Positions 15,664 through 37,994 of a stretch of DNA of 37,994 nt are shown in pieces. Every line of letters begins with the position of its first letter. Position 1 is the stretch's first letter. Made by a program: the position numbers and the translations under genes. A model generated the notes under the pieces. It made no database searches. It was not told the DNA's origin and saw only the letters and a list, made by a program, of their open reading frames with translations. This DNA comes from Gemmataceae bacterium (GTDB lineage: Bacteria > Planctomycetota > Planctomycetia > Gemmatales > Gemmataceae): positions 1 through 37,994 of the forward strand of contig JANLUE010001505.1 in assembly GCA_031363325.1 (NCBI GenBank), in the 5' to 3' direction.

Positions 15664-17112
15664 ATGAGTTCGGAAACACCTCACACCGGATGGTTGGTCC
15701 CTGTCACGATGGGTCGAATCGGATGGGCGGTTGTTATTCTCTTGATCACACTGGCGGGACTTTGGCCGGTGTTGTGGCGGAATGGATTCGGATCGGACGA
15801 GCTCGAACATTACACAGCGAAGTATACTTGGCAATCAAACCAGACCGCTCATCTCATGATGGGCTTTTGCTTCATGACTCTCTTTTGGTGGGGATGCGTT
15901 CGTCGGCGGCGGAAGCCCGACGCTTCTGTGACAATAGAAGCCAACCCGATCCGCAAGTTGGCCGGGTGGTTTCGAGCGCGGCCAGTCCTTTGGCCGTTTG
16001 CAGCTATTCTGGTGAAAGACTTCGTGTTCGACGTGCTCAAGGACCTGTTGGCGACGGCCTGCTCGCCGATTTGGCCGAACTGGTCGAGCCTTTATTTCGA
16101 CGCGATCACCGATGACCTCTTCTGGTTCACCGGCTTCGGCTTCGCGCTGTTCGTGATCGGATGGCGGGCGTCAGGTCGTGTGAATTGGAAATGTGCGCTC
16201 GGGCTGTTTGTCGGCTTCCTGCTCGGAGCTCTCGGCTGTGGCGGCTTCTGGACTGCCCAAAAAGACTCGTTCGATCGCTCCGGGCTGCCTCTCAATTACA
16301 AGCGTCTGACGCACGTCGCCGGCGAAGTGAGGTTGGTCGGCGACCGCGACACGGCGAAGTCCACAATGCGGCGAATCCAGACGGAGGCCCAGGCCGGGCG
16401 ACCCGTCCACATCGTGATTTTCGGCGGTGCCCCTGGTCCAAGGACAGAACTCGCGGTCGCCATCGGGTGCGAGTACGTGTTTCGCCTCGACGATTGGCGT
16501 TGGTCGGGGTCAACGACCGTCCTTCATTCATCGGCCGTGCATCTGCTCGAAGACCCAGGCCGGGTCTGGGCGGTTGATTCTCCAAGCCGATGTCTGGTGG
16601 TCATTGGATTGGATACGGCCACGGTCCCACCCATCGACGCCCTGGTCGAATCGGCCATCGCCGCCAAGAAGCCGGAGCTCGTGAGCGTCGGGATTCGCAA
16701 TCAACTCGATCTGGCCCGTTTCTTCGCGCTCAAGGGTCATCCGAAGGCCGAACTTTACAAGAAGGATGTACCGCTCGACGAAGACGCTCTCCGATTTCTT
16801 CAAACAACGTACATCCCCGATCCGGACCCCGAACGGTCGCTGCCCGATATCGAGGATCGCATCCTGCGTGTTCGATCGGCCGTTCAAACTCGATCGACGC
16901 CGTTCCGAACGCTTGGCGCGGCGGCGCGAGAAAAAGGGATCGCCACGGTCTGGTCCCTGGCGGAAACGCCGACCTGGCTCGGACATCATTGCACGCCGGC
17001 CGAGGAGGCCATCCATCGGGCCAACGACCGGGAGGCCTGGATCCATTCGCTTGCCTACCTGTTGGGGATCAAGCCCGACGGGTTTATTCGCCTGGAATTG
17101 GAGGCTCCATGA
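15664..17112 (+). CDS. hypothetical polytopic membrane protein with a soluble C-terminal domain
   Basis: 482-aa ORF. About 5 hydrophobic helices by eye in the first 210 aa. The C-terminal domain has a degenerate P-loop-like IFGGAPGPRTELAVAIG and the Walker-B-like CLVVIGLD. Its stop overlaps the tyrosinase start (ATGA). Confidence 0.6.
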   Translation: MSSETPHTGWLVPVTMGRIGWAVVILLITLAGLWPVLWRNGFGSDELEHYTAKYTWQSNQTAHLMMGFCFMTLFWWGCVRRRRKPDASVTIEANPIRKLAGWFRARPVLWPFAAILVKDFVFDVLKDLLATACSPIWPNWSSLYFDAITDDLFWFTGFGFALFVIGWRASGRVNWKCALGLFVGFLLGALGCGGFWTAQKDSFDRSGLPLNYKRLTHVAGEVRLVGDRDTAKSTMRRIQTEAQAGRPVHIVIFGGAPGPRTELAVAIGCEYVFRLDDWRWSGSTTVLHSSAVHLLEDPGRVWAVDSPSRCLVVIGLDTATVPPIDALVESAIAAKKPELVSVGIRNQLDLARFFALKGHPKAELYKKDVPLDEDALRFLQTTYIPDPDPERSLPDIEDRILRVRSAVQTRSTPFRTLGAAAREKGIATVWSLAETPTWLGHHCTPAEEAIHRANDREAWIHSLAYLLGIKPDGFIRLELEAP

Positions 17113-18509
17113 CCTTGAGTCGCCGCGAGCTCCTGGGGACCGGCGTGGCGTTCGCGCTCGGTGAACGATCGTTCGCCCAGGCGGCACCCCGCGTCCGCCG
17201 CGATATCGCGGGCCTCAAGGCAAACGCCCCGGACATCGAGGCGTTGGCGGCCGGCATCAAAGCCATGCGCGCGAAGCCGCCGAACGACCCGCTGAACTGG
17301 AAAAACTTTGCCGAGCGTCACGGCCGCCTCGATTCACGTGTGACGACTGACTGCCAACATGGTTCGTGGTTCTTTTTGCCGTGGCATCGGGCTTACGTGC
17401 ACCGATTCGAGCAAGCGATCGCCGAGCTTTCGGGACACAAGGCCTTCGCACTTCCGTTTTGGGCATGGGAACGCGACTTCGCGATGCCCAAATTGTTCGA
17501 CGCGGGTGGCGTGCCCGAATTCGACAATCCCACGCGGGCGGGCAAGCCCAACGCCGGCCGCAAGAACCCGAAGGCCTTTCCGCAGGCCATCGTAAAGACG
17601 AAGTTCAGCAAGCGGGCACTCGAACTGTTGCTGAACTCGCCGGACTTTGCGACGTTCGCCGGCGGCGATCCAGACGACAAAATCGTCGGAGCCTTTGCGG
17701 GGGCACTTGAGAACAATCAACATCGGTACATTCACGAATGGGTCGATGGCGACATGGGAGAGGCGGGCTGTCCGTTCGACCCGATCTTTTGGCTCCACCA
17801 TTCAAACGTGGACCGGCTCTGGGATGCGTGGGCCCGCATCAATCCAAAGCGGCACCCTGCCGCGAAAAGTTGGCTCGACAAGACCTTTCCAAGTGTGAGT
17901 CCCGACGCCACGAAGCCGCTCCGCGTACGCGACCTGCTCGGCGACCAACTTGGCTACATCTATGAAGGGACTCGGGCCGCAGGCGATATGAGCCCAGTTT
18001 CGGCGACTTCCAAGACCTCGATCGGCTTGCAGGCTCCGTCCGGAGCTTGGACGCGAATGACGGAAGGCGATCTGGCGGCCACTCCAAGGGCCGCCAAAAA
18101 CGCGGGTGCCCTGTTCGCATCGGCCCTCGACGAGCGAGGGACCAGTCGAGTCCGGCTTCGACTTCGAAAGCTCAATCCCAAGGCTGATCCTCGGGCGATT
18201 CTCGAAGTTTATCTCGCCATCGACGCCAAGCCGATCAAGCCGGATCCCGAAGGCCCGGCGTTTGCCGGCTCGGTTTCCGTCGCCGAGCGATGGATGTCGG
18301 CCGACGAACACGGCCATGGCCCCGGGGGCGTCGCACTCGACGTGACGCTACCCTTCCGCGAACTCACGCGACCGCTCAATGGCAAACTGCCACCCGACAT
18401 GACGGTTCGTTTCGTCCCGCGAACCGTGGGCGGCGAGTCGTGGCGCGGCGAGTGGAAAGACCTCGTCCCGACCGAAGTGACTTTTGACGTCGTCCAGCCG
18501 GGCGAGTAA
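17109..18509 (+). CDS. Tat-exported tyrosinase / polyphenol oxidase (type-3 copper) with C-terminal lid domain
   Basis: Twin-arginine signal MTLSRRELLGTGVAFAL. CuA motif HGSWFFLPWHRAYVHRFE. CuB motif HRYIHEW...DPIFWLHHSNVDRLW. About 150 aa of C-terminal extension. The ATG at 17109 is in frame within the longer ORF 16590..18509. Confidence 0.9.
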   Translation: MTLSRRELLGTGVAFALGERSFAQAAPRVRRDIAGLKANAPDIEALAAGIKAMRAKPPNDPLNWKNFAERHGRLDSRVTTDCQHGSWFFLPWHRAYVHRFEQAIAELSGHKAFALPFWAWERDFAMPKLFDAGGVPEFDNPTRAGKPNAGRKNPKAFPQAIVKTKFSKRALELLLNSPDFATFAGGDPDDKIVGAFAGALENNQHRYIHEWVDGDMGEAGCPFDPIFWLHHSNVDRLWDAWARINPKRHPAAKSWLDKTFPSVSPDATKPLRVRDLLGDQLGYIYEGTRAAGDMSPVSATSKTSIGLQAPSGAWTRMTEGDLAATPRAAKNAGALFASALDERGTSRVRLRLRKLNPKADPRAILEVYLAIDAKPIKPDPEGPAFAGSVSVAERWMSADEHGHGPGGVALDVTLPFRELTRPLNGKLPPDMTVRFVPRTVGGESWRGEWKDLVPTEVTFDVVQPGE

Positions 18510-19091: not shown

Positions 19092-19250
19092 CTCGACGCG
19101 GTGAGTTCGCCGCGACGCCTATTCTCGGGTTCGCGTCCTCCCTTTGCCCGACCGTCGCCCATCTGCTACACTTCACTCTACCTACCGGCCCACGCTCGCA
19201 ATCGCCCACCATCGCCCACCGAATTGACTCTCCGCACTCCGGGTGAACGC

Positions 19251-22200
19251 ATGTTCCTTCGTCGATTCGTACTGGCTGCCTTGTTCGCCGCCGCTCTGCC
19301 GCTCGCGGCCCAGGAGAAGATTCCGGCCGGACGCACCGTCGCCAAGCTCGACGCCTGGCCAGCGACGATCGAACTGAAGCACACGTTCGACTACGCACAA
19401 ATTCTGCTCACCGCCACGCTCGACAACGGCGATTCGGTCGACGTCACGCGGATCGCCAAGCTTGAAGTGCCGGCGATCGTCAAGGCGACGTCGGCCGGGC
19501 TCGTTCGGCCCGTGGCCGAGGGTAGCGGGGCGATCAAGGCATCGATCGAAGGCAAGTCGCTCGAAGTGCCGACGAAGGTTTCGGGCTTGAAGACCCGCTA
19601 CGAAGCGTCCTTCGTCACCGATGTCGCGCCAGCCATGTCGAAGCTCGGCTGCAATGCCGGCACCTGCCACGGTTCGCTCGACGGCAAGAACGGCTTCAAG
19701 CTTTCGCTCCGCGGGTACGACCCGCTGTACGATCATCGAGCCCTGACCGATGATCTTGAAGGGCGTCGCTTCAACCGGGCCGCCCCGGACCGAAGTTTGA
19801 TGCTCATGAAGCCGGGTGGGGCCGTTCCGCACGCAGGCGGCATCGTGTGGCAGCCGGGCGACCCGTACTACGAACTCGTCAAGACGTGGATCTCCGAAGG
19901 CGTGAAGCTCGACCTGAGTTCGCCGCGCGTCGCCAGCCTCGAAGTTCTGCCGAAAGACCCGATCATCCCGGCCATCGGCCTCAAGCAGCAGTTCGCCGTG
20001 TACGCCAAGTACACCGATGGCAAGGTTCGCGACGTGACGGCCGAAGCGTTTATCGATAGCGCCAATACCGAAGTGGCGACCGTCGATAAGACCGGTCTGG
20101 TCACGACGGTTCGTCGTGGCGAAGCGACGATGCTCGCCCGCTACGAAGGGGCCTATTCCGCGAGTACGCTCGTGAGCATGGGCGACCGCTCCGGCTTCAC
20201 CTGGTCGAACCCGCCTCAGTTCAATCACCTGGACGGGCTCGTCTACGAGAAACTCAAGCGCGTAAAGGTATTGCCGAGCGAGTTGTGTTCGGACGCGGAC
20301 TTCGTGCGCCGAATTCACATTGACCTGATCGGCCTGCCGCCGGAGCCCGCTGTGGTCCGTTCGTTCCTGGCCGACGCTCGAGCCACGCAGGTCAAGCGCG
20401 ATGCCTTGATCGACGCGCTCGTCGGGTCGCCGGAGTACATCGAACACTGGACGAGCAAATGGGCCGACATGCTCCAGGTGAACCGCAAGTTCCTGGGCGA
20501 TGTCGGCGCGAAAGCGTTGCGAGACTACATTCGCAAGGCCGTCGCCGAAAACACCCCCTACGACAAGTTCGCCCGCGCGGTATTGACGGAGAGCGGCTCG
20601 AACGCCGAGAAGCCGGCCGCCGCGTACTACAAGGTTCTCCGCGAGCCCGATGCCGCCATGGAGAACACGACGCACCTGTTCCTGGCGATTCGCTTCAATT
20701 GCAACAAGTGCCACGACCATCCGTTCGAGCGCTGGACCCAGGATCAGTACTATTCGCTGGCCTCGTTCTTCGCGCAGGTCGGTCGGGCCGAGGACCCGAA
20801 GTACAAGGGCCAACGAATTGGCGGTAGTGCGGTTGAAGGGGCCGTCCCGCTCGTCGAAGTGATCTCGGATACGGGGGGTGGTGAAGTCACGCACATCCGC
20901 ACGGGGCAGACGGCCAAGCCATCCTTCCCGTACACCCACAAGGATTTGCCGACCGGCAAGGAGCCGCGTCGCGAGCAGGTCGCGAAGTGGATTACTTCGC
21001 GCGACAACCCGTACTTCGCGAAGAGCTACGTTAACCGCATCTGGAGCTACCTGACGGGCGTCGGCATCATCGAGCCGGTGGACGACATCCGGGCCGGCAA
21101 CCCGCCGACGAACCCGGCCCTGCTCGATCGCCTGTCGAAGGACTTCATGGAGAGCAACTTCGACGTCCAGAAGATGATCAAGACGATCTGCAAGAGTCGC
21201 ACGTATCAACTCGCCGTGTCCACCAACAAATGGAACGACGGAGACGACATCAACTATTCGCACGCGTTGGCCCGTCGCCTGCCCGCCGAGGTGCTGTACG
21301 ACGCGATCCACCGCGTGACCGGGTCGGCCTCGCGCTTGCCCGGTTTGCCGGTCGGTGCGCGGGCGTCGCAGGTGCTCGATGGCACCGTCGACTTGCCGAG
21401 TGGGTTCCTCGATCTGTTCGGCAAGCCGGTCCGCGAGAGCGCCTGCGAATGCGAGCGCTCGAACAGCATGATGCTTGGGCCGGTTTTGAACCTGGTGAAC
21501 GGGCCGATCGTCGGCGATGCCCTGCGCGACCCGGCCAATCGCCTCGGCAAGATCGCGGCGGCCAACCCGGACGACAAGAAGTTCGTCGAAGAAGTGTACC
21601 TCGCCATTCTGAATCGCCTGCCCTCGGCGAAGGAACTCGAAATTGGCCTGCGCGCCGTCAACGAAGGCATGGCCGACCACGCGACGCAGACGGCCGAGTT
21701 CGCCGGCAAAATGAAGACGTTCAAGGATCACGAAGCGAAGGTCGATGCCCGTCAGACCAACTGGGAACGCGGGATTTCCGAAGCCCCGACGTGGGAGTTG
21801 CTCACGCCGACGACCGTGGCCTCGATCAACAAGGCGAAGTTGAACATCAACAAGGCCGATCAAACGGTCCTCGTCAACGGCCCGAATCCCGAGAAGGAAA
21901 CCTACACGGTCACCTTCAAGTCCAAGCTCGCGCTGGTCACCGCCCTGCGGCTCGAAGCGCTGTCCGACCCGACTCTGCCGGCGCAAGGCCCCGGCCGGGC
22001 CGATAACGGCAACTTCGTGCTCGGCGAATTCACCGTGAAGGCCGGCCCGTCCGAGAAACCGATGGAATCGAAGTCGATCGTTTTGCACAGGCCGGTCGCC
22101 ACGTTCTCGCAGGAGGGCTACCCAATCGCCAACGTGCTCGATGGCAACCCGACGACCGGGTGGGCGATCTCGCCGCAGATTGGCAAGTCGCAATCGGCCC

Positions 22201-22562
22201 TGTTCGAGTTGAAGGACGTGCTGACCTACGAGAAGGGCACGTTGTTCACGATCACCCTGAAGCACGAGTTCGGCCAGAAGCACACGATCGGCAAGTTCCG
22301 CGTCTCGGCCACGTCGGACGCGCAACCGAAACTCGCTGACGGCGTGCCGGAGAACCTGCGAAAGCTGATCGCCATCCCCGCCGCCAAGCGAACCGACGCC
22401 CAGAAGGCGGAGATACAAAACATTCACCGCTCGCAGGACGCGGAGTATCAGCGACTTGCGGGCACGGTCGCGCTGCCGCCGCCAAGCGACAAGCGCGTCA
22501 CGGGTGCCCAGGACCTGGCGTGGGCGCTGATCAACAGCCCGGCGTTCCTGTTCAACCATTGA
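19251..22562 (+). CDS. DUF1549/DUF1553 (PSCyt/PSD1-type) planctomycete protein with Ig-like domain
   Basis: About 1103 aa from the ATG at 19251. Signal peptide MFLRRFVLAALFAAALPLAA. It has SKLGCNAGTCHGS, FNCNKCHDHPFERWTQDQYY and the C-terminal ...NSPAFLFNH typical of this family. Confidence 0.85.
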   Translation: MFLRRFVLAALFAAALPLAAQEKIPAGRTVAKLDAWPATIELKHTFDYAQILLTATLDNGDSVDVTRIAKLEVPAIVKATSAGLVRPVAEGSGAIKASIEGKSLEVPTKVSGLKTRYEASFVTDVAPAMSKLGCNAGTCHGSLDGKNGFKLSLRGYDPLYDHRALTDDLEGRRFNRAAPDRSLMLMKPGGAVPHAGGIVWQPGDPYYELVKTWISEGVKLDLSSPRVASLEVLPKDPIIPAIGLKQQFAVYAKYTDGKVRDVTAEAFIDSANTEVATVDKTGLVTTVRRGEATMLARYEGAYSASTLVSMGDRSGFTWSNPPQFNHLDGLVYEKLKRVKVLPSELCSDADFVRRIHIDLIGLPPEPAVVRSFLADARATQVKRDALIDALVGSPEYIEHWTSKWADMLQVNRKFLGDVGAKALRDYIRKAVAENTPYDKFARAVLTESGSNAEKPAAAYYKVLREPDAAMENTTHLFLAIRFNCNKCHDHPFERWTQDQYYSLASFFAQVGRAEDPKYKGQRIGGSAVEGAVPLVEVISDTGGGEVTHIRTGQTAKPSFPYTHKDLPTGKEPRREQVAKWITSRDNPYFAKSYVNRIWSYLTGVGIIEPVDDIRAGNPPTNPALLDRLSKDFMESNFDVQKMIKTICKSRTYQLAVSTNKWNDGDDINYSHALARRLPAEVLYDAIHRVTGSASRLPGLPVGARASQVLDGTVDLPSGFLDLFGKPVRESACECERSNSMMLGPVLNLVNGPIVGDALRDPANRLGKIAAANPDDKKFVEEVYLAILNRLPSAKELEIGLRAVNEGMADHATQTAEFAGKMKTFKDHEAKVDARQTNWERGISEAPTWELLTPTTVASINKAKLNINKADQTVLVNGPNPEKETYTVTFKSKLALVTALRLEALSDPTLPAQGPGRADNGNFVLGEFTVKAGPSEKPMESKSIVLHRPVATFSQEGYPIANVLDGNPTTGWAISPQIGKSQSALFELKDVLTYEKGTLFTITLKHEFGQKHTIGKFRVSATSDAQPKLADGVPENLRKLIAIPAAKRTDAQKAEIQNIHRSQDAEYQRLAGTVALPPPSDKRVTGAQDLAWALINSPAFLFNH

Positions 22563-27640: not shown

Positions 27641-30600
27641 TCACACCGATCGCTTCACGTCAAATACATCGCGATCAACGACATCGAGCCCATCGACCGA
27701 GATCAGGTCCACGCTGCCATCGCGAGAGATGACCTGGTCCGCGTCGGCCCCGCCGACCATCGTGTCGCGGCCCGTCCAGCCGATCAGGGTGTCGTTGCCC
27801 GATCCGCCATCGAGCGAATCGTTGCCGGCCCCGCCATGCAAGAAGTCCCCCTGGGCCCCGCCGATCAGGGTGTCGTTGCCATCGTCTCCGAAGAACAGGC
27901 CCTTCCAGAACGCGCCGGCCGTCGCGTCCATCTCGATCCGATCGTTGCCGCCCAGGCCGTAGACCGTGACGGTTTCGCCTTCGAGATAGTTGAAGCGAAT
28001 CTCCTGACCGTTCAGCGTGACAACCGCGACCGGGTCGCCGTTACCATCGACTTCGCGCTTCACGAGGATCACATCGTTGCCAGCGGTACCTTCGATGACG
28101 AAGCCGTCTTCATCCGCCCCGAGGTTGACGATGTCGCCGCCCGGGTTCGGAGCCGAATCGTTGCCCGCGTTGCCGAACAATCGATCGAGGCCGGCCCCGC
28201 CGATCAACGTGTCGTTGCCCGCGTTGCCGACCAGCGAGTCGTCGCCAAGACCGCCGAGCAGCGAGTCTGCGTTCGAGCCGCCCAGGATCGTGTCGTTGCC
28301 GGCCGCCCCATCAATCGTCGTTCGGCCCGAGAACGCCGTCGCGTCGATCGTCTGGCTGGCCGCGTCGCCCGTGATCAGGGCTTGCTCGAAATCGGAGATC
28401 GTGTCGGTCCCCTCGGAGATCATCGACGCGTCGGTCAACGTGATGGTCGTCGCGTTCGAGATCACGCGGATCGTATCGACCCCGTTGCCGCCATCGAGAA
28501 CATCGTCTCCCTTGGCCCCGGCGATTCGATCGTTCGCGTTGCCGCCTTGAACGGTCGCTTGACCCGAGAAATCGCCGAGGAAGACGTCGTTGTTGTTTCC
28601 GTTGACGAGCCGCAGGTTGAGTTTCTCCAACCCACCCAGGGCATCGACGACGGCCGCCCCGCCGTTGTCGGTGAAGACCGTGGCGACGTCGCTCATCGAG
28701 AACGTCATGCGGTTGTTCGACTGCAGGACTTCGTCGAAGGTGTCGATCCCGGAGCCGCCCTGAACGGTGTCTTTCCCCGTCCCGCCGGTCAGCACATCGT
28801 TGTCGCCGCCTCCGGAAACGTTGTCGTCTCCCGATCCGCCGATGACCGTATCGTCCCCGACTCCGCCACTGAGAACGTCGTTGGACCCTTGCCCATCGAG
28901 CCGATCGTTGCCGGCGTTTCCGGTCAGCGAATCGTCGCCGACTCCGCCCTGAATATCGTCTCCGGCCGACCCGCCGATCAGGTTGTCGTTTCCGTTCGCG
29001 CCGACGAGCGTGACCGGCCCATCGAAGTTGGCCGCGTTCATGGAGTTGTTGCCGACGCTCCCGACGAGTTGAGCGGCCTCGATGCTCTGCAAGGCATATT
29101 GATGGTTGCCCCCGATCCCATCGACGTTGATGAACAGGGCGGTGTTCGTGAGGCTGAAGTCCGCGTTCGCGCTTTCGGACAGGATGTCGTCCCCGGCCCC
29201 GCCATCGATCGAGTCATCTCCGAGATTGCCCACGATCGAATCGAGCCCCTGGCCCCCGAAAATCGAGTCGGCCTTCACGCCGCCGAACAACGAATCGTTC
29301 CCAAGGCCGCCGTTCAGAGTCACCGGCCCGGAAAAGGCCTGGGCGCTGATGCGGTTGTTGGCGTCGGTTCCATCGAGTTGAGCCCGATCGATCTGGGTGT
29401 GCGTGTCGCGTCCTTCGCCGTCGAAGATTGTGTTCGTGATCAACCCGTTCAAGGCGATCGTCGCGTCGAGTCGGTCGTTTCCGAGCCCGCCATCGATGCT
29501 ATCGTCTCCTTCGCCGCCGCGAATCGTATCGTCGCCGAGCCCGCCGAGCAGCGTGTCCTTGCCGTCGCGACCACTGATCGAATCGTCGCCGTTTTCGCCT
29601 TCGATGCGATCGGCCCCGCGACCGCCCGTCAGGAAATCGCCGCCCTTGCCGCCCTTGATGGTTGCGTTGCCATTGAACGTGAGGGCACTGATCTGGTTCA
29701 CGGCGTCGCTGCCCGTGAGCACGGCCCGTTCGATCGATGTGAAGGTAACCAGCTCGACGCCGGGGTTGCGTGTGAAGTTGACGTCGCTCAGGAACCCATC
29801 GTTGCTGATCGATGCGACCAGCACGTCCGAGCCCCCGCCGCCATTCAGCGTCGCCTTGCCCGTGAAGGCCGTCACATTGAAGCTATCGTTCCCGGTGCCG
29901 GCGTTGATCTCGATCTCCTCGACGGCCGTCAACGAATCGGTGCCAACGCCAACGAGTTGCGTGTTTGCCAGGACGAACGCAGTCGCTGTGTTTGATCCGT
30001 TCTCGAAGACCCGGTCCGTTCCTTGACCACCGTTGAACGTGTCGTTGCCCGAGGACCCGAACATTGTGTCCTTACCATCGTTTCCGGTGAACAGATCGTT
30101 TCCGGCCGCTCCGTTGAGAACATCGTCGTTTGAGCCGCCGACGAGGGTATCGTTGCCGAGCCCGCCGGAAAGCGTGACCTTGCCATCGAACGCGGCCGCG
30201 TTTAGGTTGTTGTTCCCGTTGCCGCCGGTCAAGTTGGCGAGTTCGACTCCGTTGACTTGATCCAGTCCAACGCCGGCCAGGGTCGTGTTCGTGAGCGTGA
30301 AGCTCACGTTGGCCGTCTCGGTGATCTGGTCGGTCCCGAGCCCGCCGATCAGCACATCGTTTCCGGTGGAGCCCGTCAGGGTATCGTCGTCTTGCCCGCC
30401 ATCGAGGAGGTCGTCGCCGAGTCGTCCATCGATGGAGTCGTTGCCGATCCCACCGACCAGCACGTCTTTGCCATTCGACCCGACGATCGTGTCGTTCCCG
30501 GAGCCTCCATCAATGTTGACGTTTTGCGAGAAGAAACTCGTGTTGAGTGCGGACGCGTTGATGGTATCCGCGCCACCATTTCCATTGACGATGAGTCCGA

Positions 30601-30811
30601 ACGTATCGGAGAGCGTGTGCCCTGTGTTGGCGTTATTGACCTGGATCGCGCCGTTGCTCAGCGAGCGCACGGTGATCAGGTCGTTGGCCGCGTCCCCGGT
30701 GACGGTCAGGATGCCGTTCGAGAACGAGACCGTGAACGCGGGCACGATGCGATCGCCGAGCGATTCGAGGTTCAGGCGGAACTTGCGATTCTTGCGCTTG
30801 AGCTGGCTCAT
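27641..30811 (-). CDS. large RTX-type calcium-binding repeat protein (hemolysin-type GGxGxD nonapeptides)
   Basis: 1056 aa from the ATG at 30811 (MSQLKRKNRKFRLNLESLGDRIVPA...). Dozens of GGxGNDxLxG-type repeats run throughout. Confidence 0.85.
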   Translation of the reverse strand: MSQLKRKNRKFRLNLESLGDRIVPAFTVSFSNGILTVTGDAANDLITVRSLSNGAIQVNNANTGHTLSDTFGLIVNGNGGADTINASALNTSFFSQNVNIDGGSGNDTIVGSNGKDVLVGGIGNDSIDGRLGDDLLDGGQDDDTLTGSTGNDVLIGGLGTDQITETANVSFTLTNTTLAGVGLDQVNGVELANLTGGNGNNNLNAAAFDGKVTLSGGLGNDTLVGGSNDDVLNGAAGNDLFTGNDGKDTMFGSSGNDTFNGGQGTDRVFENGSNTATAFVLANTQLVGVGTDSLTAVEEIEINAGTGNDSFNVTAFTGKATLNGGGGSDVLVASISNDGFLSDVNFTRNPGVELVTFTSIERAVLTGSDAVNQISALTFNGNATIKGGKGGDFLTGGRGADRIEGENGDDSISGRDGKDTLLGGLGDDTIRGGEGDDSIDGGLGNDRLDATIALNGLITNTIFDGEGRDTHTQIDRAQLDGTDANNRISAQAFSGPVTLNGGLGNDSLFGGVKADSIFGGQGLDSIVGNLGDDSIDGGAGDDILSESANADFSLTNTALFINVDGIGGNHQYALQSIEAAQLVGSVGNNSMNAANFDGPVTLVGANGNDNLIGGSAGDDIQGGVGDDSLTGNAGNDRLDGQGSNDVLSGGVGDDTVIGGSGDDNVSGGGDNDVLTGGTGKDTVQGGSGIDTFDEVLQSNNRMTFSMSDVATVFTDNGGAAVVDALGGLEKLNLRLVNGNNNDVFLGDFSGQATVQGGNANDRIAGAKGDDVLDGGNGVDTIRVISNATTITLTDASMISEGTDTISDFEQALITGDAASQTIDATAFSGRTTIDGAAGNDTILGGSNADSLLGGLGDDSLVGNAGNDTLIGGAGLDRLFGNAGNDSAPNPGGDIVNLGADEDGFVIEGTAGNDVILVKREVDGNGDPVAVVTLNGQEIRFNYLEGETVTVYGLGGNDRIEMDATAGAFWKGLFFGDDGNDTLIGGAQGDFLHGGAGNDSLDGGSGNDTLIGWTGRDTMVGGADADQVISRDGSVDLISVDGLDVVDRDVFDVKRSV

Positions 30812-31080
30812 GACGTTGACTCCGAGACGATGGATGATGGCGGTCCGCGAAGGAATGAGCCCGTAACCCGAGCGTGCGAACGGAATTCGCCCAGGGGAGC
30901 TGGCCGGAACCGTGTTCGCCGGCCGCGATGATTGCGTTGTGATTGGCGTCTCCGACGCCGCCGAGACTTGCCGTGTCCCTACCAACTACCTGGCCGGCCC
31001 GCGGAGAAGTGTGACCGGAATCGATCGGAGGCGAGCGAATCGTTGTCGGTCAATGAGTAACCAGTACTGAGAAATCACTC

Positions 31081-31190: not shown

Positions 31191-31260
31191 ACTGAGTACT
31201 GAGTACTGAGTACTGAGTACTGAGTACTGAGTACTGAGTACTCAATACTCAGTACTCAAT
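31191..31260. repeat. heptanucleotide microsatellite (ACTGAGT)x7 followed by ACTCAAT-ACTCAGT-ACTCAAT
   Basis: Counted directly: seven perfect tandem ACTGAGT units at 31191..31239. Three units of the reverse-complement type follow at 31240..31260. The last one overlaps the kinase stop codon (31256..31258). Confidence 0.95.
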
Positions 31261-34006
31261 CGTCCTTGACGCGTCGCGTCGACTGGGTCAGTTGTTTGAA
31301 TTCGTCCGTCGCAATTATTTCGGCGAAGACCGCGTCGTTGCGGAGACGCGACCAGTCTCGCAGGCCGCGATTGGACGCCACACCCAGGGCGATCAACGCT
31401 TGTCGGTGATGGATACGAACGAAGGCTTGCTCGGCCGGCGTATTCCCAAATCGGGCCGCCACACGTAGGGCGAATCGAGCCTGGCGTATGGCCAGATCCA
31501 CGTCGGGCGCGCGAAAGGAATTGAGATACGTCGCGAGATCGGAAGCTTCACCAATCGACTTCCGCCGCAGGAGCAAGTCGCCCAGGTCGATTTGCCAGGC
31601 CACGATCGCCTGGGCGTGGCGTGAGTTCTTCGGTTCGAGCCGATAGACCGCCTCGATCTCGACCTTGGCGTCGCGCATGGCCACGACCGCGTCGTCCAGT
31701 CGCTTCGGGTTCTTCGAGAGATAGACGCCCAGTCGATGGGCGATTTCGCCCGCCCGATACCGGGCGGCCAGGCCGGCGGGGTAGCGCTTCAGGTAGTCGC
31801 GCATGATCCGCAGGGCGGCCCGATAGTTCGACTCCGCATCGGGATCGCCGACGCGTTCTTGCGTTCGCGCCAGCACGGCCATCACATTACTTTCGACGTT
31901 CAGATACTTCGGGTTCACGTTCAGGCGTTGATGAATGTCCGCGATGCGCTCGACGAGGGGCCGCATCATCGTCAACGATTCCGGGTATTGACGTGACTGA
32001 TAGAGCAAACGTGCTCGCTCCGCGACAATGGAAATGGCCGCCCACTGATACATTTCATTGTGCGGGAATTCGTTGGCCAGTTCCTCGACGATCGGTTGGG
32101 CGTCGTCGAGCGATTCGCAGCGAAAGACCGGCAGCCGATTCGACTCCAACGCGTACACCCCGAGGATCGCCTCACACAATCGAAAGCGAGCGGCCGGCGA
32201 TGGGTTCTTGGCCCGACCTGCGCTCCGAAGTTCCTGGAACGCTTGCTCGTACACGAGGTCGGCCTCCGCACCGCGATCCTGTCGAACGAGTGAGATCGCC
32301 CGAATCGCGAGCGTCGACCCATAGCCGCTTCGATACTCCGCGTCGTCCGGCGCTTCGACGAGCAACTGTCGGAAGAGCGCCTCGGCCTTGTCCAAACTCG
32401 CGTTCGCCGCCGCGAAGTCCATAAACCCGAGCGACGTATCCGCGTCGTCCGAATACGCCACCGCCAGCAAATAGCGAATGTCCCGTTCGTCGCGAAGCTC
32501 GGCACGCAGTTCGTTCAACGCTTCGATGGTGTCGCGAACATGGACGCGACGAAGTTGAACGCCTTCCGAAACCTCGGTCGAAAGTTGATGGAAGACTTGC
32601 CGGCGACGATCGAAGGTTTGCAGTAGATGGCCGAAGTTTCCATCGGCCCGATCCTTCGCCTGCCGGGCCTGGTCCGCTTCCCGGTCGGCCCGTTCTTGCT
32701 CGGCGCGGGCGTGGTCCAGGGCCTTGACGAGTTTGTCGTTCGCCGTCTCGACCTGGGAGTTCTTGAAGAACAGGACGCACGTCGTGCCGGCGAGAGCGAG
32801 AATCAATCCGACGATCGCGGTCGTGACGATTTGCCGATGGCGCTTGGCCCATTTCTTGGCGTGCTGCCAGGCGGACGGGCGCTTCGCGAGAATGGGCCGA
32901 TTGTCCAGGAATCGCCGCAAATCGTCGGCCAGGTCCCGCGCGGTTCGATAGCGCTCGTCCGGGTCCTTGGCCATCGCCTTGCGGACGATCACGTCCAATT
33001 CTTCCGGCACGTTGCGATCGACGAGGCGAACGGAAGGCGGTTCGCGCTCGGAGATTTGCCGCAGCAATTGCTCGCGGGTCTCGCCCGGATACGCCGGCCC
33101 GAGCGTCAGCATTTCGTAGAGCGTCACGCCGAGCGAATAGACATCGCAACGATGATCGACCGGCCCCGGCCGAAGCGTCGCCTGCTCGGGGCTCATGTAC
33201 CGGAGCGTGCCGACCACGTCACCGGTCATCGTTAGGCGAACATCGCTCCGCACGTGGGCGAGTCCGAAGTCCGTAACCCAGACCTGGCCGTCCGGGTCGA
33301 TGATCAAGTTCGCCGGCTTGATGTCGCGATGGATGACGCCGTTGGCGTGCGCGTACTCGAGCGCCTCGGCCGCCTGGACGCCGCAGCGCGCGACCCAGGG
33401 GTAGTAATCCGCCTTGCGGCCCGAGCGAACCGTCGAAAGCAACCCCTGGGGAGGCGTCGTGTCGCCTTCGATCGGCGCGGGCTTCGTCGTCCGCAACTCC
33501 GCGATCACCTCGGCGACCGTATGGCCATCGATGAACTGCATCGCGTAGAAATGCACGCCGCGATCGGTGCCGATGCCATAGACCGGGACGATGTTCGTGT
33601 GATGCAGTTGCCCGGCGGCCTGAGCTTCCGTCTTGAACCTTTGCAATTGTCGTTGATCGAGCGCGGCCGCGAAGGGGAGAACCTTCAACGCGACGCGTCG
33701 ACTCAGGCTGATCTGTTCCGCCTCGTAGACGACGCCCATCCCGCCGCGACCGACCTGACGAACGATGCGAAAGTCGCCGAGTTGACCGGGCGCGCCGTCT
33801 TCGGTCGAACTGGGCAACGCGTCCTGATCCGGGGCCCGCATCGCGGCCAGGGTGGGAAACATCTGGCGAATGAAGTTCGCGATCCGGGGATACCGCTGGG
33901 TGTATTCCTCGATCGTCGGCGCGTCGCCGCGCGCGAGGCGATCGAGGAACTCGTCCGCGACCTGGGCCATCAACGATTCAACCGAAACGTCTTCCGCGGT
34001 GGTCAC
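31256..34006 (-). CDS. membrane Ser/Thr protein kinase with C-terminal TPR-like sensor region
   Basis: 916 aa with a GTG start. Kinase motifs VALKVL, HRDIKPANLI, DFGLA and YMSPEQ. One TM helix (IVTTAIVGLILALAGTTCVLFF). Long helical-repeat C-terminus. Confidence 0.9.
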   Translation of the reverse strand: MTTAEDVSVESLMAQVADEFLDRLARGDAPTIEEYTQRYPRIANFIRQMFPTLAAMRAPDQDALPSSTEDGAPGQLGDFRIVRQVGRGGMGVVYEAEQISLSRRVALKVLPFAAALDQRQLQRFKTEAQAAGQLHHTNIVPVYGIGTDRGVHFYAMQFIDGHTVAEVIAELRTTKPAPIEGDTTPPQGLLSTVRSGRKADYYPWVARCGVQAAEALEYAHANGVIHRDIKPANLIIDPDGQVWVTDFGLAHVRSDVRLTMTGDVVGTLRYMSPEQATLRPGPVDHRCDVYSLGVTLYEMLTLGPAYPGETREQLLRQISEREPPSVRLVDRNVPEELDVIVRKAMAKDPDERYRTARDLADDLRRFLDNRPILAKRPSAWQHAKKWAKRHRQIVTTAIVGLILALAGTTCVLFFKNSQVETANDKLVKALDHARAEQERADREADQARQAKDRADGNFGHLLQTFDRRRQVFHQLSTEVSEGVQLRRVHVRDTIEALNELRAELRDERDIRYLLAVAYSDDADTSLGFMDFAAANASLDKAEALFRQLLVEAPDDAEYRSGYGSTLAIRAISLVRQDRGAEADLVYEQAFQELRSAGRAKNPSPAARFRLCEAILGVYALESNRLPVFRCESLDDAQPIVEELANEFPHNEMYQWAAISIVAERARLLYQSRQYPESLTMMRPLVERIADIHQRLNVNPKYLNVESNVMAVLARTQERVGDPDAESNYRAALRIMRDYLKRYPAGLAARYRAGEIAHRLGVYLSKNPKRLDDAVVAMRDAKVEIEAVYRLEPKNSRHAQAIVAWQIDLGDLLLRRKSIGEASDLATYLNSFRAPDVDLAIRQARFALRVAARFGNTPAEQAFVRIHHRQALIALGVASNRGLRDWSRLRNDAVFAEIIATDEFKQLTQSTRRVKDD

Positions 34007-34629
34007 AGTTCACCTTCGGTTTCGGAAAACAACTGCCGATGGAGGCGAACGATGGCCCGGCTGTGGCGCTTGCGGGCGGCCGCCGGGTCGATGCCGAGCA
34101 GATAGGCCGCCTCTTCGTGCGAGAGCCCTTCGAAGACCCGCAGGACGATCACTTCGCGGTCGGCCGGGTCCAATCGATCAACCGCGTCGCGAACCCGGCC
34201 GGCGAGTTCCTCGCGGCTGACTTGCTGGCTCGGCGTCGAGTTCGTACCCGGCAACTGCAAGGCGAGTTGGAGGAACGAATCGTCCGGGATGCGGACTTCC
34301 CGTCCGGTGGCCCGTCGGGCCGTTGTCAGATGATAGCGACGCAGCTTGCTCATCCGCTCGGCAGCCAGTTGCCGGAGCCAGAGCCGAAACGGTACGTCCG
34401 GGTTCTCGATATACGCCTGGAACCGCCGCAGCGCCTCGAGTTGAGTCTCCTGAACGATGTCCGAGGCATCGACCCGTTGCCGGAGGCGATCGTCCATGCG
34501 GAACTGGATCATCCGAACCAGGTACGGCCGATAATGTTCGAACAAGCGGTTGAACGCGACGGCGTCGCCCGTCCTGGCTCGAACGAGCAGGCTCGCGGTC
34601 TCGGCGGTGTCCGGCGCAGGCTCCGGCAT
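34003..34629 (-). CDS. ECF-type RNA polymerase sigma-70 factor
   Basis: 208 aa. Region 2 (FNRLFEHYRPYLVRMI...DIVQETQLEALR) and region 4 (REVIVLRVFEGLSHEEAAYLLGIDPAAARKRHSRAIVRL). The stop overlaps the kinase GTG start (GTGA). Confidence 0.9.
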   Translation of the reverse strand: MPEPAPDTAETASLLVRARTGDAVAFNRLFEHYRPYLVRMIQFRMDDRLRQRVDASDIVQETQLEALRRFQAYIENPDVPFRLWLRQLAAERMSKLRRYHLTTARRATGREVRIPDDSFLQLALQLPGTNSTPSQQVSREELAGRVRDAVDRLDPADREVIVLRVFEGLSHEEAAYLLGIDPAAARKRHSRAIVRLHRQLFSETEGEL

Positions 34630-34706
34630 GGCAGTCCCCTACCTACTCTTGGCCGGGCCGCCGGCAGATGTGACCGAGTATTTGGAGAATTCCAAATGGC
34701 TTTGGC

Positions 34707-34732
34707 ATTGCCACCAGAATCCAATTGCCACC
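34707..34732. repeat. direct repeat ATTGCCACC x2 (17-bp spacing) upstream of the ECF sigma gene
   Basis: ATTGCCACC occurs at 34707..34715 and 34724..34732, which is 78-103 nt upstream of the sigma start codon on the minus strand. Confidence 0.8.
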
Positions 34733-34761
34733 GTTAGCGCGGCTGGTGGGAAATGGTTGCG

Positions 34762-34800
34762 TTTGCACTCCCACGGCTACTAGGGTCGTGGGAATGCAAA
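34762..34800 (-). terminator. hairpin 5 nt downstream of the selenoprotein-candidate stop
   Basis: tttgcactcccacg-N11-cgtgggaatgcaaa forms a 14-bp stem with one mismatch. No clear U-tract follows, so terminator function is uncertain. Confidence 0.35.
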
Positions 34801-34805
34801 CTCGC

Positions 34806-37136
34806 TCAGGGCACGAACACGTTGTCCCGCTCGAGCGGCAACTGGAACGCGTCGGCCACGCGAGTCATGTAGTGGCAGCGACACGCCCACCAGATCACAT
34901 CAATGGCCCGGTCGGGGCCGAAGTGACGCTTCAACTCCTCAATGTCCTTCGATGTGATGTTCCACGGCTCCCGGGACATCTTGCGAGCGTAGGCGAAGGC
35001 GACGCGCTCGGCCGGCGGGAAGCCGGTCCAGTCGCCGTCGGCCAACTTCTGCGTTCGTTCCCGGATGGCTTTGTCGTCGAGGCCCGCGACCGCGAGCAGC
35101 ATTTCGGTATGCCCCATTCAGTAAAAGCACTGAATTTCTCGGGTGATCACCCAAAACAAGAGTTCCTCGAAGACGCGGTCTTGTTTGGAGTCCTCGGCGA
35201 ACCAACGCATCCCGCCGGTCCACGGGGCGGCCAGGATCGGCGAATGGCCCAGGCATACGAGGCTCCACTTGATCCGCAACGGCTTGGCGTCCTTGGACAT
35301 GTACTTTTTCACGTCGTCGAACGTCGGGACCGAGACGCGCGGCTCACGGGCCTTCTGGGCGTCCATGAATTTTTGCAGGCCCGCGAAGTCGATGCTCCGC
35401 CAGTCCGGGTCCGTCACGCGTTCGAGTGTCGCGTCGGCGATCGCTTCGATCTTTGGTCGGGGCGGCGGGTTGCCGCCCTCCCACGGCTTCTGAAAACGTA
35501 CCCCGGTGGGCGGACCGTCGGGCAGGTCGGCGACGCCGAGCGAATGGAGCATCCGATCCTGGAAGTTGCCGAACGCCACCAATTGCACGAGCGCGACGAG
35601 CTTCGGGTCGCCGAGGTCCGTGCGGACGGCGGCCATTTGTTCGTCGGTCACCTTGTAGGCTGCGAGCGTGAGTTGCCGCGCCAACTTGAGAATACGCCGA
35701 GTTTCTTCGGTGAGTGCGGCCTGATCGCCGAGCATCGATTTCACTTCCGCATCCGTCCCGCCGGCCAACTTCAGGTCGGCGAGCGCGACTTCCTTCGAGG
35801 CCGGACAGCGGAGCACGTCGGCCACGGTCCAGCGAGCCATCGCCCGGAGCTTCGGATCGAGCGGGCTCTTGGTGCGATGTAGGTCGTCGAGTTCGAGGTA
35901 GGTGGCCGTCGCCCGGGGCAGCGAACGCGCGGTGATCTTCGCCCAGGCCGGCATTGGCCCGCCCTGACCGGTCGTCGCGAGCGGCAACTTGGTCCAGGCC
36001 TCCGTCGAAGGCGGCATCGGGAATCGTTGGGCCATCGCGCGTTCCTCGGCCAAGTACACGGCGATCTGCTGTTCCAGTTCGCCGGGCTTGAAGCCGAACG
36101 GGCCACGGCCGCCCTTGTACGCGACCTTGCCCGCCCGATCGATGAAATAGAGCCGATCCGGCATGCCGCTATACAGGTGGCCGACGTGGTCGTCGATTTT
36201 GTCGACGACCAGGGGGATCGTCATCTTGAGGGCGGCGCAACATTGCGACGCGACTTCGACGCGCTCCGCGTCCGTGGTCGGTTGATCGAACGTGACGCCC
36301 GCCTTGTCGTTCGAGGCGATGCGCCAGCCGCTCGTCGGGTGCGCTTCCCGCACGTAGACGTTGATGAATTGAACCTGATCGCCGTAGATCTGATGCAGAC
36401 GTTCGAGGCGCCCAAACTGGGCGCGATACGGGCCTCAGGTAAAGCTCCCGAAAATGAGCACCACCGGCTTCTTGTCCCGGCAGTCGCTCAAGGTGTAGGT
36501 TCGCTTGCCATCGAAGCTCGTCAGCGTGAAGTCCGGCGCTGCACTCTCGTGTTTCGGCCCTTCGGCACCGGAACCAAGTTCGCCCGTCATCAAGCCAATC
36601 AGAAGCGTGGCGGTCGATGGGCCGCCTCCACCAGGCGGCGGGCTCTTTGGGGGCGGTGGGAAAAGCAATTGACGCAGGTCGTCCGGCTCCATCGTGTCTT
36701 TGCAGCCGGTCGCCCGATCGAACAGGCCGGTCCATTCCGCTTTATTTAGTTTGCGGTCGGCGTTCTGGTCGCCGCGTCGAACGAGCGATCCCGCGATCGC
36801 CATCTGCTTCGAGTAGGTGCTACCGTCGGACCAGTCGAAATCGTCGGCCGTGATGAAGCCATCGCCATCCCGGTCAAGAGCTTTGAACGCCATCGCCGGC
36901 CCACCAAACTCGTCGGCGGAGACGCGGCCGTTCTTGTCGCGGTCGAACTGCTTCTGGAATCGAGCCCAGGAGTAGCGAACGTGGCTGTCCTTGAACCAGC
37001 CATCGCCCGGCCCCATCTGCGAGCCGGACAGGACGGCGTCGAGCATCTGCAAGAACTCGCCCCGCGGGCGAGTCGGCGGGTCGGCGAGGCCGATGGTCGG
37101 GAGGAATGCCATGAGTGCGAGCGGAAGTCGGGACAT
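34806..37136 (-). CDS. predicted secreted selenoprotein: signal peptide, EF-hands, deiodinase-like thioredoxin fold, tandem AhpD/CMD-like domains; two in-frame UGA codons read as Sec
   Basis: Three ORFs (36435..37172, 35118..36353, 34806..35117) are contiguous in one frame, separated only by TGA at 36435..37 and 35118..20. Conserved domains run straight across both TGAs: FGSFT-U-GPY...VYVREAHPTSGW, and ITREIQCFY-U-MGHTEMLL. The total is 776 aa from the ATG at 37136 (MSRLPLALMAFLPTIGLA). Confidence 0.7.
35082..35097 (-). promoter_or_regulatory. candidate SECIS hairpin for UGA-2
   Basis: The mRNA reads GCUCGC-GGUC-GCGGGC: a 6-bp stem including one G-U pair, with loop GGUC. The loop G residues are 27-28 nt after the UGA. 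Confidence 0.45.
36408..36424 (-). promoter_or_regulatory. candidate SECIS hairpin for UGA-1
   Basis: The mRNA reads GCGCCCA-GUU-UGGGCGC: a 7-bp perfect stem in a 17-nt element that begins at the 11th nt after the UGA. Confidence 0.55.
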
Positions 37137-37168
37137 ACGCAAAATTCCGGATCGGGCGCTCGGTCGAA

Positions 37169-37390
37169 TCAAGCTTTCGTCGATTCCGTCGTTCGGTTTC
37201 GCAGGTATTCTCGCAGCGCCGCATTGACCGCCGCCTCGTCCGCGAAGGCGGCAGCGACATCGTCCGCGAGACGAACCACACGAAGTCGCTCGCGATATCG
37301 ATCGAAGTATTTGCCGCGGACAACGCCTCGCAACGAACGAAAGTCGTAGTCCGACCGCAACTCGTCACTCGATTCAGGGGAAGTTGCCAT
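37169..37390 (-). CDS. brnA: BrnA-like antitoxin
   Basis: 73 aa from the ATG at 37390 (MATSPESSDELRSDYDFRSLRGVVRGKY...). The '(D/E)YDF...RG' pattern is typical of antitoxins paired with BrnT. It overlaps brnT by 17 nt. Confidence 0.65.
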   Translation of the reverse strand: MATSPESSDELRSDYDFRSLRGVVRGKYFDRYRERLRVVRLADDVAAAFADEAAVNAALREYLRNRTTESTKA

Positions 37391-37655
37391 CTTCGTAGTC
37401 CTTTCGCTCACCACGATTTGCTTCTCGCGCACTGATGATTCGAATTCGACCATCACGGTCGGTGTGAGATACGATGATCACACGGCCGCCATTTGACAAC
37501 CCCACTGTAATGTACCGATCTTCGTCGTCCGAGTGATCGGGATCGAAACCCGTCGCGGCCAATGGATCGCCGAAGACCGTCATCGCATCGCCAAAGGTGA
37601 CATCGTGTTTCCGGGCATTCGCATCCGCCTTCTCATCGTCCCATTCGAACTCCAT
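37374..37655 (-). CDS. brnT: BrnT-family (DUF497) toxin
   Basis: 93 aa. MEFEWDDEKADANARKHDVTFGDAMTVFGDP...RIISAREANRGERKDYE is the classic BrnT signature. Confidence 0.85.
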   Translation of the reverse strand: MEFEWDDEKADANARKHDVTFGDAMTVFGDPLAATGFDPDHSDDEDRYITVGLSNGGRVIIVSHTDRDGRIRIISAREANRGERKDYEDGNFP

Positions 37656-37717
37656 AACGGCTCCACGAACTTTGCATATTGCACTTGACCGTCGCCTTTG
37701 GAAGCCCGGAAACTCAA

Positions 37718-37994
37718 CTACTTTTTCCCCGCCCCCTGCTTCAACTCCATCACGCGGTCCACGTTCGGCACCTCATATTCCTCGGTGCCCGCGTCCTTGC
37801 CCGGCCAGCGGACGGTCAACTTGTCGACTTTCTCCACAAAGCCGAGGCCGAAGGTCACGGTCAATTCGCTCTGGCTCAGGTAGCCGCGGCCCGAGACGAC
37901 GTCGCGGGACTGCACTTTGCCGCCCGCTTCGATCGTCACGGTAGCCCCGATGGCCGAGCGGTTCGACTTTTTGCCGTCGCCTTGCAGGTTCAGT
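37718..37994 (-). CDS. ASPIC/UnbV domain protein (CRTAC1 family), C-terminal part; 5' end lies outside the window
   Basis: SGRGYLSQSELTVTFGLG...VDKLTVRWPG matches the UnbV_ASPIC C-terminal motif. The frame stays open to the window edge. Confidence 0.7.
   Translation of the reverse strand, partial: LNLQGDGKKSNRSAIGATVTIEAGGKVQSRDVVSGRGYLSQSELTVTFGLGFVEKVDKLTVRWPGKDAGTEEYEVPNVDRVMELKQGAGKK

Follow-up and report, generated by a model that had tools for sequence, protein, structure and literature searches.

Probable second selenocysteine codon, with an adjacent conserved hairpin, in a deiodinase-like/AhpD-like fusion gene of a Gemmataceae bacterium

We have analyzed a 37,994-nucleotide stretch of DNA from a Gemmataceae bacterium (contig JANLUE010001505.1, assembly GCA_031363325.1; the whole stretch is hereafter the window), which carries on its minus strand, at 34806..37136, a gene with two in-frame UGA codons. 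The second of them, UGA-2 (35118..35120, minus strand), is very probably a selenocysteine (Sec) codon at which insertion is directed by the adjacent hairpin. The gene comprises 776 sense codons, the in-frame UGAs being Sec234 and Sec673, and a terminal TGA at 34806..34808. Three open reading frame (ORF) pieces on the minus strand share one frame (37172/37136..36438, 36353..35121, and 35117..34809) and are separated by exactly two TGAs, at 36437..36435 (UGA-1) and 35120..35118 (UGA-2); the ATG at 37136 was taken as the start codon, the alternative being a TTG at 37172. The arrangement around UGA-2 is the one described in the initial annotation: ORF 35118..36353 terminates with ...FWVITREIQCFY and then TGA, and ORF 34806..35117 opens in the same frame with MGHTEMLLAVAGL... 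at the next codon. In all three pieces the GC content at third codon positions is 0.77-0.87, and GC is distributed over the codon positions as in real genes, in a window of 62% GC. A scan of the window for TGAs flanked on either side by coding signal returned UGA-1 and UGA-2, plus an antisense artefact at 8354, and nothing else. Full-length homologs of the same architecture with cysteine at both positions also exist.

UGA-2 lies in the motif Q-C-F-Y-U-M-G-H, and in relatives the same column is occupied either by UGA or by a cysteine codon. A query made of the C-terminal half, in which C stood in for U, was searched, and the best 120 protein matches were compared. About 55 of these 120 stop exactly at ...TRE(L/N/S)QCFY (57-68% identity) and come from metagenomes and a Gemmataceae metagenome-assembled genome (MAG), and about 65 run on as C-[FNP]-Y-C-M-G-H-C (44-49% identity) in Isosphaeraceae, Tundrisphaera, Paludisphaera, and others. 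At the DNA level, we sampled 80 planctomycete loci from a scan of species-representative genomes. Among 97 homologous sites, the UGA-2 position is TGA in 33 (the window included) and TGC or TGT in 64, and it is never TAA or TAG. Since both kinds of codon occupy one column, the site is a Sec/Cys pair, which is the orthologue pattern that the annotation had proposed to look for. A BLASTP alignment runs across UGA-2 without a gap and places it onto Cys310 of P0050, a homolog from Tundrisphaera sp. TA3 (CFY-X-MGH versus CFYCMGH; 57% identity over 181 amino acids, E = 6e-77). The 103-residue tail after UGA-2 shares 52-81% identity with its orthologs and is no less conserved than the 74 residues before it. 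A reassigned code, with UGA as a sense codon, was ruled out because TGA closes 12 of the 17 confident genes in the window, the selenoprotein gene included.

If UGA-2 were a true stop, the gene would yield separate polypeptides, the downstream one being a 103-amino-acid ORF that starts from ATG and is possibly translationally coupled, or it would be a decaying pseudogene. It is true that an ATG directly follows the TGA, that public gene calls split here and leave the 103-amino-acid ORF abutting the stop, and that one GenBank MAG record (P0023) calls the truncated piece a carboxymuconolactone decarboxylase (CMD) family protein. However, the Met after the site is an invariant internal residue of CxxCMGH in the 64 Cys forms, and a split would break up a helix as well as a redox motif. 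All 33 internal stops are TGA, whereas the real terminal stops of these genes are a mixture of TGA, TAG, and TAA. Purifying selection is seen on both sides of UGA-2, and a conserved, co-varying hairpin accompanies the TGA forms alone. Termination at UGA-2 is thus extremely unlikely. The initial annotation had argued that two stops, each on a redox-active residue and followed by a hairpin, are hard to explain as random nonsense mutations, and the 33 TGA and 64 Cys sites, the conserved tail, and the conserved hairpin support that reading.

The hairpin resembles a bacterial selenocysteine insertion sequence (SECIS) element. It occupies 35082..35097 on the minus strand, within the codons for (L)-L-A-V-A-G, and has a 6-bp stem (GCUCGC/GCGGGC) and a GGUC loop. 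Counted from the U of UGA-2 it spans nucleotides 24-39, with the loop G, G, and U 27-29 nucleotides past the UGA, a UGA-to-loop spacing of 26 nucleotides, and a minimum free energy (MFE) of -8.7 to -9.5 kcal/mol; the hairpin sequence, its position, and the distance of the loop G and U had been given correctly in the annotation. In a 2026 review, the bacterial SECIS model calls for a loop of 3-9 nucleotides, a stem of 4-16 bp, and a G in the first two loop positions (PMC13188914, Fig. 2), at 16-37 nucleotides from the UGA and with an MFE at or below -7.5 kcal/mol (PMC13188914). The UGA-2 hairpin agrees with this published model in every respect.

The hairpin is also strictly tied to the TGA forms. 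CUCGC-GGUC-GCGGG is present at the same distance in 33 of 33 TGA forms, in which 99.5% of the alignment cells are paired, and it is missing in the Cys forms, so that the conservation asked about in the annotation is found in full, together with compensatory changes at two pairs. Pair 24-39 is GC in 26, CG in 3, UA in 1, and UG in 1 of the TGA forms, and pair 27-36 is CG in 31 and GC in 1. None of 500 shuffles of the TGA-form alignment reaches the observed stem score, and no slid register comes near it. The mean local folding energy is -10.2 kcal/mol in Sec forms versus -4.8 kcal/mol in Cys forms. In the window by itself the hairpin is not beyond chance: 0.24 occurrences of the 14-mer CTCGCGGTCGCGGG would be expected there when one mismatch is allowed. 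In 873 kb of related planctomycete loci the 14-mer has 35 copies, and 35 of 35 lie exactly 24 nucleotides past an in-frame TGA. Once relatives are compared, the hairpin is thus far beyond chance. A metagenome scan with the pattern TGA + GGNCAY + 14-mer gave at least 120 stretches that were kept, at least 113 of which have the context C-x-Y-U-[M/L]-G-H. One metagenome relative reads CFYUTGHA, close to the "CFYUT" of the NCBIfam family NF041238.

A paralogous two-domain AhpD-like family (Pfam CMD, E = 1e-8), with the motif FWIVSRxNNCxY-U-LGHQExKLAVAGL, has Sec/Cys pairs and the same hairpin at the same distance. Its CxYU-LGHQ sites were found in the same genomes, at L023:2456, L042:3473, L055:4205, and L059:3708 (plus strand); in the last of these the stem is kept and the loop AGUU replaces GGUC.

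The conserved block after UGA-2 might instead reflect an amino-acid or codon-usage constraint on L-A-V-A-G, with no RNA structure at all. The block is indeed coding, V-A-G-L is conserved in Cys forms too, and four of the six stem pairs are invariant among the TGA forms. However, the Cys forms spell the same amino acids with many synonymous codons and the Sec forms with one: V-A is encoded by GTC-GCG in 32 of the 33 Sec forms versus 10 of 53 Cys forms (P = 1e-13, Fisher's exact test, uncorrected for phylogeny). The Ala (GCG) of the Sec forms replaces a Glu (GAA or GAG) of the Cys forms, and it is this Ala codon that closes the stem. Furthermore, the changes in the stem are two-sided (GC to CG, UA, or UG at pair 24-39, and CG to GC at pair 27-36), and the paralog has retained the stem under an altered loop. 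A purely codon-level explanation is, in our judgment, extremely unlikely.

Several results weigh against decoding of UGA-2 as Sec through this hairpin. ARAGORN detected no tRNA-Sec in the window or in the 873 kb of fetched loci, returning one tRNA-Thr only, and selA, selB, and selD were absent from the 38-kb window (Pfam on 19 window ORFs) and from the fetched loci. The folding energy of the 50-60 nucleotides past UGA-2 does not stand out from that of dinucleotide shuffles (z = +0.2 to +0.9), and Rfam at permissive E-values on 34000..37994 gave chance-level matches only, with no SECIS family. The Rfam outcome is uninformative because no match belonged to a SECIS family. The folding energy of the hairpin alone was dropped as evidence, being no better than that of shuffles, and the comparative analysis was used instead. 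The remaining doubt on Sec at UGA-2 comes from the lack of any sel gene or tRNA-Sec in the window and the fetched loci, and we therefore infer Sec decoding in this organism. Full sets of Sec-insertion genes are reported in the relatives Gemmata obscuriglobus and Isosphaera pallida (PMC4807772).

The same lack leaves some room for UGA-2 being recoded in another way, through read-through that a near-cognate tRNA for Trp, Cys, or Arg would carry out and the hairpin would stimulate; hairpins can stimulate read-through in general. On the other side stand the position of the site, which is a redox-active Cys column in a protein whose two domain families are both established Sec/Cys families (PMC1088965, PMC2398784, PMC13188914), and the fit of spacing, loop size, and loop G and U to the bacterial SECIS model. 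A second UGA in the same protein falls on the deiodinase Sec position and has its own SECIS-like hairpin, and the gene sets of Gemmata and Isosphaera (PMC4807772) again speak for Sec. Near-cognate read-through is very unlikely, if a little less so than a true stop or a codon constraint, and Sec insertion remains by far the preferred reading of UGA-2.

The domain that contains UGA-2 is the second half of a tandem of AhpD-like subdomains. The first subdomain (35523..35915, minus strand; amino acids 408-538) has a degenerate C-P-A-S in place of CxxC and is matched by Pfam CMD (E = 4e-4) and TIGR01926. The second, active one (34827..35165, minus strand; amino acids 658-770) carries the CxxU and gives sub-threshold matches to NF041238 (E = 2e-5) and TIGR01926 (E = 5e-5). 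The two halves are related to each other, as hhalign aligns them with 97.8% probability (E = 8e-13). When a profile of full-length Cys homologs was compared with the Protein Data Bank (PDB), subdomain 1 alone was matched, by PA0269 (2ijc, 2o4d), Bmp8, 2pfx, and 6k40. By way of Cys310 of P0050 and then the subdomain-1 column, the U column corresponds to the second Cys of CAYC in PA0269 (2o4d), a transitive correspondence with no direct alignment. An AlphaFold (AF2) model of P0050 is all-helical (pLDDT 89, pTM 0.91) and places C307-C310 at the start of helix 308-320. In a Foldseek search with this model, the best PDB matches were to human Sestrin2 over the whole length, followed by the AhpD-core structures 2prr, 6k40, 3c1l, and 2gmy. 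The bromopyrrole debrominase Bmp8 (6ohi, 6ohj) came up for the tandem module in the sequence comparison and again in the fold comparison.

Assignment of the U-bearing domain to this fold has results against it as well. On the full protein, Pfam CMD matches amino acids 408-475 only, with 20.8 bits against a cut-off of 23, and on amino acids 560-776, which hold the U, it has no match. The scores of the AhpD-family NCBIfam models are far below their cut-offs (23.8-24 versus 175 bits for NF041238; 23 versus 81.8 bits for TIGR01926). The invariant His stands at +3 from U (U-M-G-H), versus +4 in PA0269 and in Mycobacterium tuberculosis AhpD. Position +4 is variable in the Sec forms (C 25, T 24, S 23, G 7, A 4, and V 3 among the metagenome matches listed), and in the Cys forms the residue after M-G-H, which stands where AhpD has its catalytic His, is always Cys. 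The U-bearing domain is nonetheless supported as a divergent AhpD-like domain by the NCBIfam models, the profile-profile alignment, and the predicted sestrin-like tandem fold. The claim that the read-through motif matches the CxxC...H of the CMD/AhpD family thus holds as to its AhpD-like nature, and fails in that Pfam CMD matches only the subdomain with CPAS and that the His is at +3. Likewise, a direct test of the U-bearing domain with the Pfam CMD hidden Markov model (HMM) failed for want of a match. Homologs, hhalign, and PDB profile matches were used in its stead, and the placement of the UGA on the catalytic Cys column, which the HMM had been expected to confirm, was obtained by BLASTP, hhalign, and profile.

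The first UGA presents a closely parallel case. UGA-1 (36435..36437, minus strand) is read as Sec234 in F-G-S-F-T-U-G-P-Y, within the Pfam T4_deiodinase and NF038285 matches, and its homologous site is TGA in 28 cases and TGC or TGT in 58, in the motif FG(S/N)xT-[U/C]-(G/P)P. It too is followed by a SECIS-like hairpin (36408..36424, minus strand; GCGCCCA-GUU-UGGGCGC) with a 7-bp stem, the loop GUU, 17 nucleotides from UGA to loop, and -12 kcal/mol. In the 28 Sec forms this hairpin reads NNCCCA-GUU-UGGGNN, with a conserved CCCA/UGGG core and two co-varying basal pairs, and it is missing from the Cys forms. The initial annotation had spoken of two stops, each on a redox residue and each with a hairpin behind it, and UGA-1 bears this out, being both Sec/Cys-paired and followed by a co-varying hairpin.

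UGA-1 lies in a deiodinase-like domain with the peroxiredoxin-like thioredoxin fold (36069..36545, minus strand; amino acids 198-356; PF00837, E = 5e-26; AhpC-TSA, E = 2e-6). The protein is a clear member of NCBIfam NF038285 (deiodinase_rel), which it matches over amino acids 25-364 with 439.5 bits against a cut-off of 250. An EF-hand pair, a calcium-binding unit, is found at 36744..36893 on the minus strand (amino acids 82-131; EF-hand_1, EF-hand_5, EF-hand_6, and EF-hand_7, E = 1e-7 to 2e-6). The hydrophobic N-terminus (MSRLPLALMAFLPTIGLA; 37083..37136, minus strand), whose counterparts in homologs are likewise hydrophobic leaders, is judged from its sequence to be a probable signal peptide, and the product is probably exported. 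From its N-terminus, the predicted product would comprise the signal peptide, the two EF-hands, the deiodinase/peroxiredoxin-like domain that carries Sec234, and, last, the two AhpD-like subdomains in a sestrin-like tandem.

The deiodinase-like and AhpD-like modules are fused in 51 loci, the window counted, and are encoded by neighboring genes in others, in the order AhpD-like and then deiodinase-like. As it was by their deiodinase part that loci were chosen, the count of co-occurring modules is biased. The 51 fusions comprise 15 Sec/Sec loci, 32 Cys/Cys loci, and four loci with Cys at site 1 and Sec at site 2; Sec at the deiodinase site together with Cys at the AhpD site was found in none of the 51. 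The mixed forms with Cys in the deiodinase part and Sec in the AhpD part are L011, L019, L042, and L077 as fusions and L051, L056, and L063 as adjacent genes, and these can serve as natural controls. Stand-alone AhpD-like genes with TGA exist too, for example in the cultured Tundrisphaera lichenicola P12. Complete genomes in which a TGA form occurs are those of T. lichenicola P12 (NZ_CP195106.1, at about 2.78 Mb), Gemmataceae OZ245717.1, and Isosphaeraceae BPJS01000001.1.

In AhpD, the second Cys of CxxC is the nucleophile. If decoding follows the pattern of other bacteria, the hairpin at 35097..35082 would be bound by SelB loaded with Sec-tRNA(Sec), which would insert Sec rather than allow termination, and in the resulting C670-x-x-U673 the Sec would occupy the place of the second, nucleophilic Cys. 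Sec234 would react with peroxide or a halogenated substrate, and the CxxU of the AhpD-like module would then resolve or re-reduce the oxidized Sec234. That the two selenium centers form such an internal redox relay, after the manner of AhpC-AhpD, is possible, although we lean slightly against it: the relay is drawn entirely by analogy, and no reductant is identified for an exported protein. The occurrence of the modules as gene fusions and as adjacent genes fits a functional coupling of the two. Calcium binding may regulate the protein. It is unlikely that the enzyme is a reductive dehalogenase, a function suggested by the dehalogenating relatives of both modules (iodothyronine deiodinase for the one and the CMD-family debrominase Bmp8 for the other).

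The M. tuberculosis AhpC-AhpD system, whose structure 1knc is among the fold matches, served as the model for the proposed relay. It likewise pairs a partner of the peroxiredoxin-type thioredoxin fold with an AhpD-fold CxxC partner. There, however, the two are separate cytoplasmic Cys proteins reduced through lipoamide, whereas the window would encode one predicted exported chain with Sec in both centers. Sestrin2 (5t0n, 5dj4) is the best structural match (TM 0.5-0.6, E = 1e-5), and both it and the tandem module are pseudo-dimers of two AhpD-like halves. With 10-12% identity only, and Sestrin2 being a eukaryotic leucine sensor without Sec, the resemblance is one of fold only.

Each of the two modules belongs to a known kind of selenoprotein. 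AhpD-like/CMD selenoproteins with CxxU, the "hypothetical protein 1", and bacterial deiodinase-like selenoproteins were described in 2005-2008 (PMC1088965, PMC2398784), and the 2026 review lists them among 119 families and subfamilies, of which only a small subset has 2-3 Sec residues (PMC13188914). The annotation was accordingly right that Sec/Cys pairs are known among AhpD-like proteins, CxxU members having been known since 2005 (PMC1088965). Like those members (COG2128, TIGR01926, PF02627), the window protein has a helical AhpD-type domain with Sec at the second CxxC position, Cys homologs elsewhere, and a small SECIS hairpin directly past the UGA (PMC1088965, PMC2398784). It differs from them in that its domain follows another AhpD-like half, with which it forms a tandem, shares the chain with a second selenoprotein domain, and stays far under the family cut-offs in its scores. 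NF041238 (AhpD_rel_CFYUT), a family of alkylhydroperoxidase-related selenoproteins that the same review equates with the Sargasso "hypothetical protein 1" (PMC13188914), shares the C-F-Y-U core, and no other NCBIfam model matches the motif region better. The window protein nevertheless falls below its cut-off and is not a member, and its motif runs on with M-G-H and not T. As for the bacterial deiodinase-like selenoproteins (PF00837, NF038285), the N-terminal 364 residues are a clear member, with UGA-1 in FGSxT-U-xP. NF038285 covers only the EF-hand and deiodinase parts, to which the window protein adds about 410 residues of tandem AhpD-like sequence with the second Sec.

The fusion to a deiodinase-like selenoprotein domain, which gives two Sec residues, is possibly the part that has not been described. 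The known bacterial proteins with 2-3 Sec residues, as far as the searched passages of the review list them, likewise join an AhpD CxxU domain to another Sec-bearing domain, and it is the partner domain that differs in the window. In PMC1088965, PMC2398784, and the searched passages of PMC13188914 we came upon neither a deiodinase-like/AhpD-like double selenoprotein nor a tandem AhpD form of this kind, and literature searches did not return a described deiodinase-like/AhpD fusion or a planctomycete selenoproteome. A paper on the GOS data mentions a "Prx-like 3 / Unknown_3 (CxxC)" fusion, which could not be compared with the fusion in the window. No NCBIfam model covers the deiodinase-like plus tandem AhpD-like fusion. 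We tentatively propose, as something close to an even call, that these genes represent an undescribed selenoprotein subfamily, widespread in soil and freshwater Planctomycetota. Its members would be exported, calcium-binding fusions in which a Sec-bearing deiodinase/peroxiredoxin-like domain is joined to a tandem AhpD module of sestrin-like form that has a second Sec, and the two selenium centers would make up a self-contained Se-Se (or Se-S) relay; the SECIS element, placed in L-A-V-A-G codons and requiring the Glu-to-Ala replacement, would be common to the paralogous AhpD-like family.

Public records, whether from gene callers or GenBank MAGs, cut the gene at both TGAs into two or three pieces, so that databases hold a planctomycete protein family in fragments and underestimate the selenoproteome of the phylum. 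The signature of hairpin plus TGA is specific and can be used directly to find and repair such genes. If the proposal is true, a single exported chain with two Sec centers would be a compact natural model for the resolution of a selenenic acid or selenenylsulfide by a second selenol. Current understanding is not overturned by these results: the AhpD-like CxxU selenoproteins and the deiodinase-like ones are both bacterial families of textbook standing.

The gene content of the remainder of the window fits Planctomycetota. Just upstream of the selenoprotein gene is a gene for a BrnT-family ribonuclease toxin (37374..37655, minus strand; E = 2e-26), which is overlapped by a 95-amino-acid ORF (37169..37456, minus strand) with no Pfam match that presumably encodes the antitoxin. 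Directly downstream is a gene for an ECF-type sigma factor (34003..34629, minus strand), which has a 4-nucleotide overlap with the gene for a 916-amino-acid Ser/Thr protein kinase whose C-terminal part is a long region of repeats (31256..34006, minus strand), a typical planctomycete pairing. A perfect 15-bp hairpin (UUUGCAUUCCCACG...CGUGGGAGUGCAAA; 34761..34801, minus strand) begins 5 nucleotides past the terminal TGA of the selenoprotein gene. The 76-nucleotide stretch around it has a folding energy of -27.9 kcal/mol (z = -4.4 versus shuffles) and no U-tract, and the hairpin may serve as a terminator or, lying before the ECF sigma gene, as a regulatory element. Farther away, the window encodes an RTX calcium-binding repeat protein with 13 repeat stretches (27641..30985, minus strand), a PSCyt2/PSD1 (DUF1549/DUF1553) protein (19101..22562, plus strand), a tyrosinase-domain protein (16590..18509, plus strand), and a 1730-amino-acid ORF (7969..13161, minus strand).

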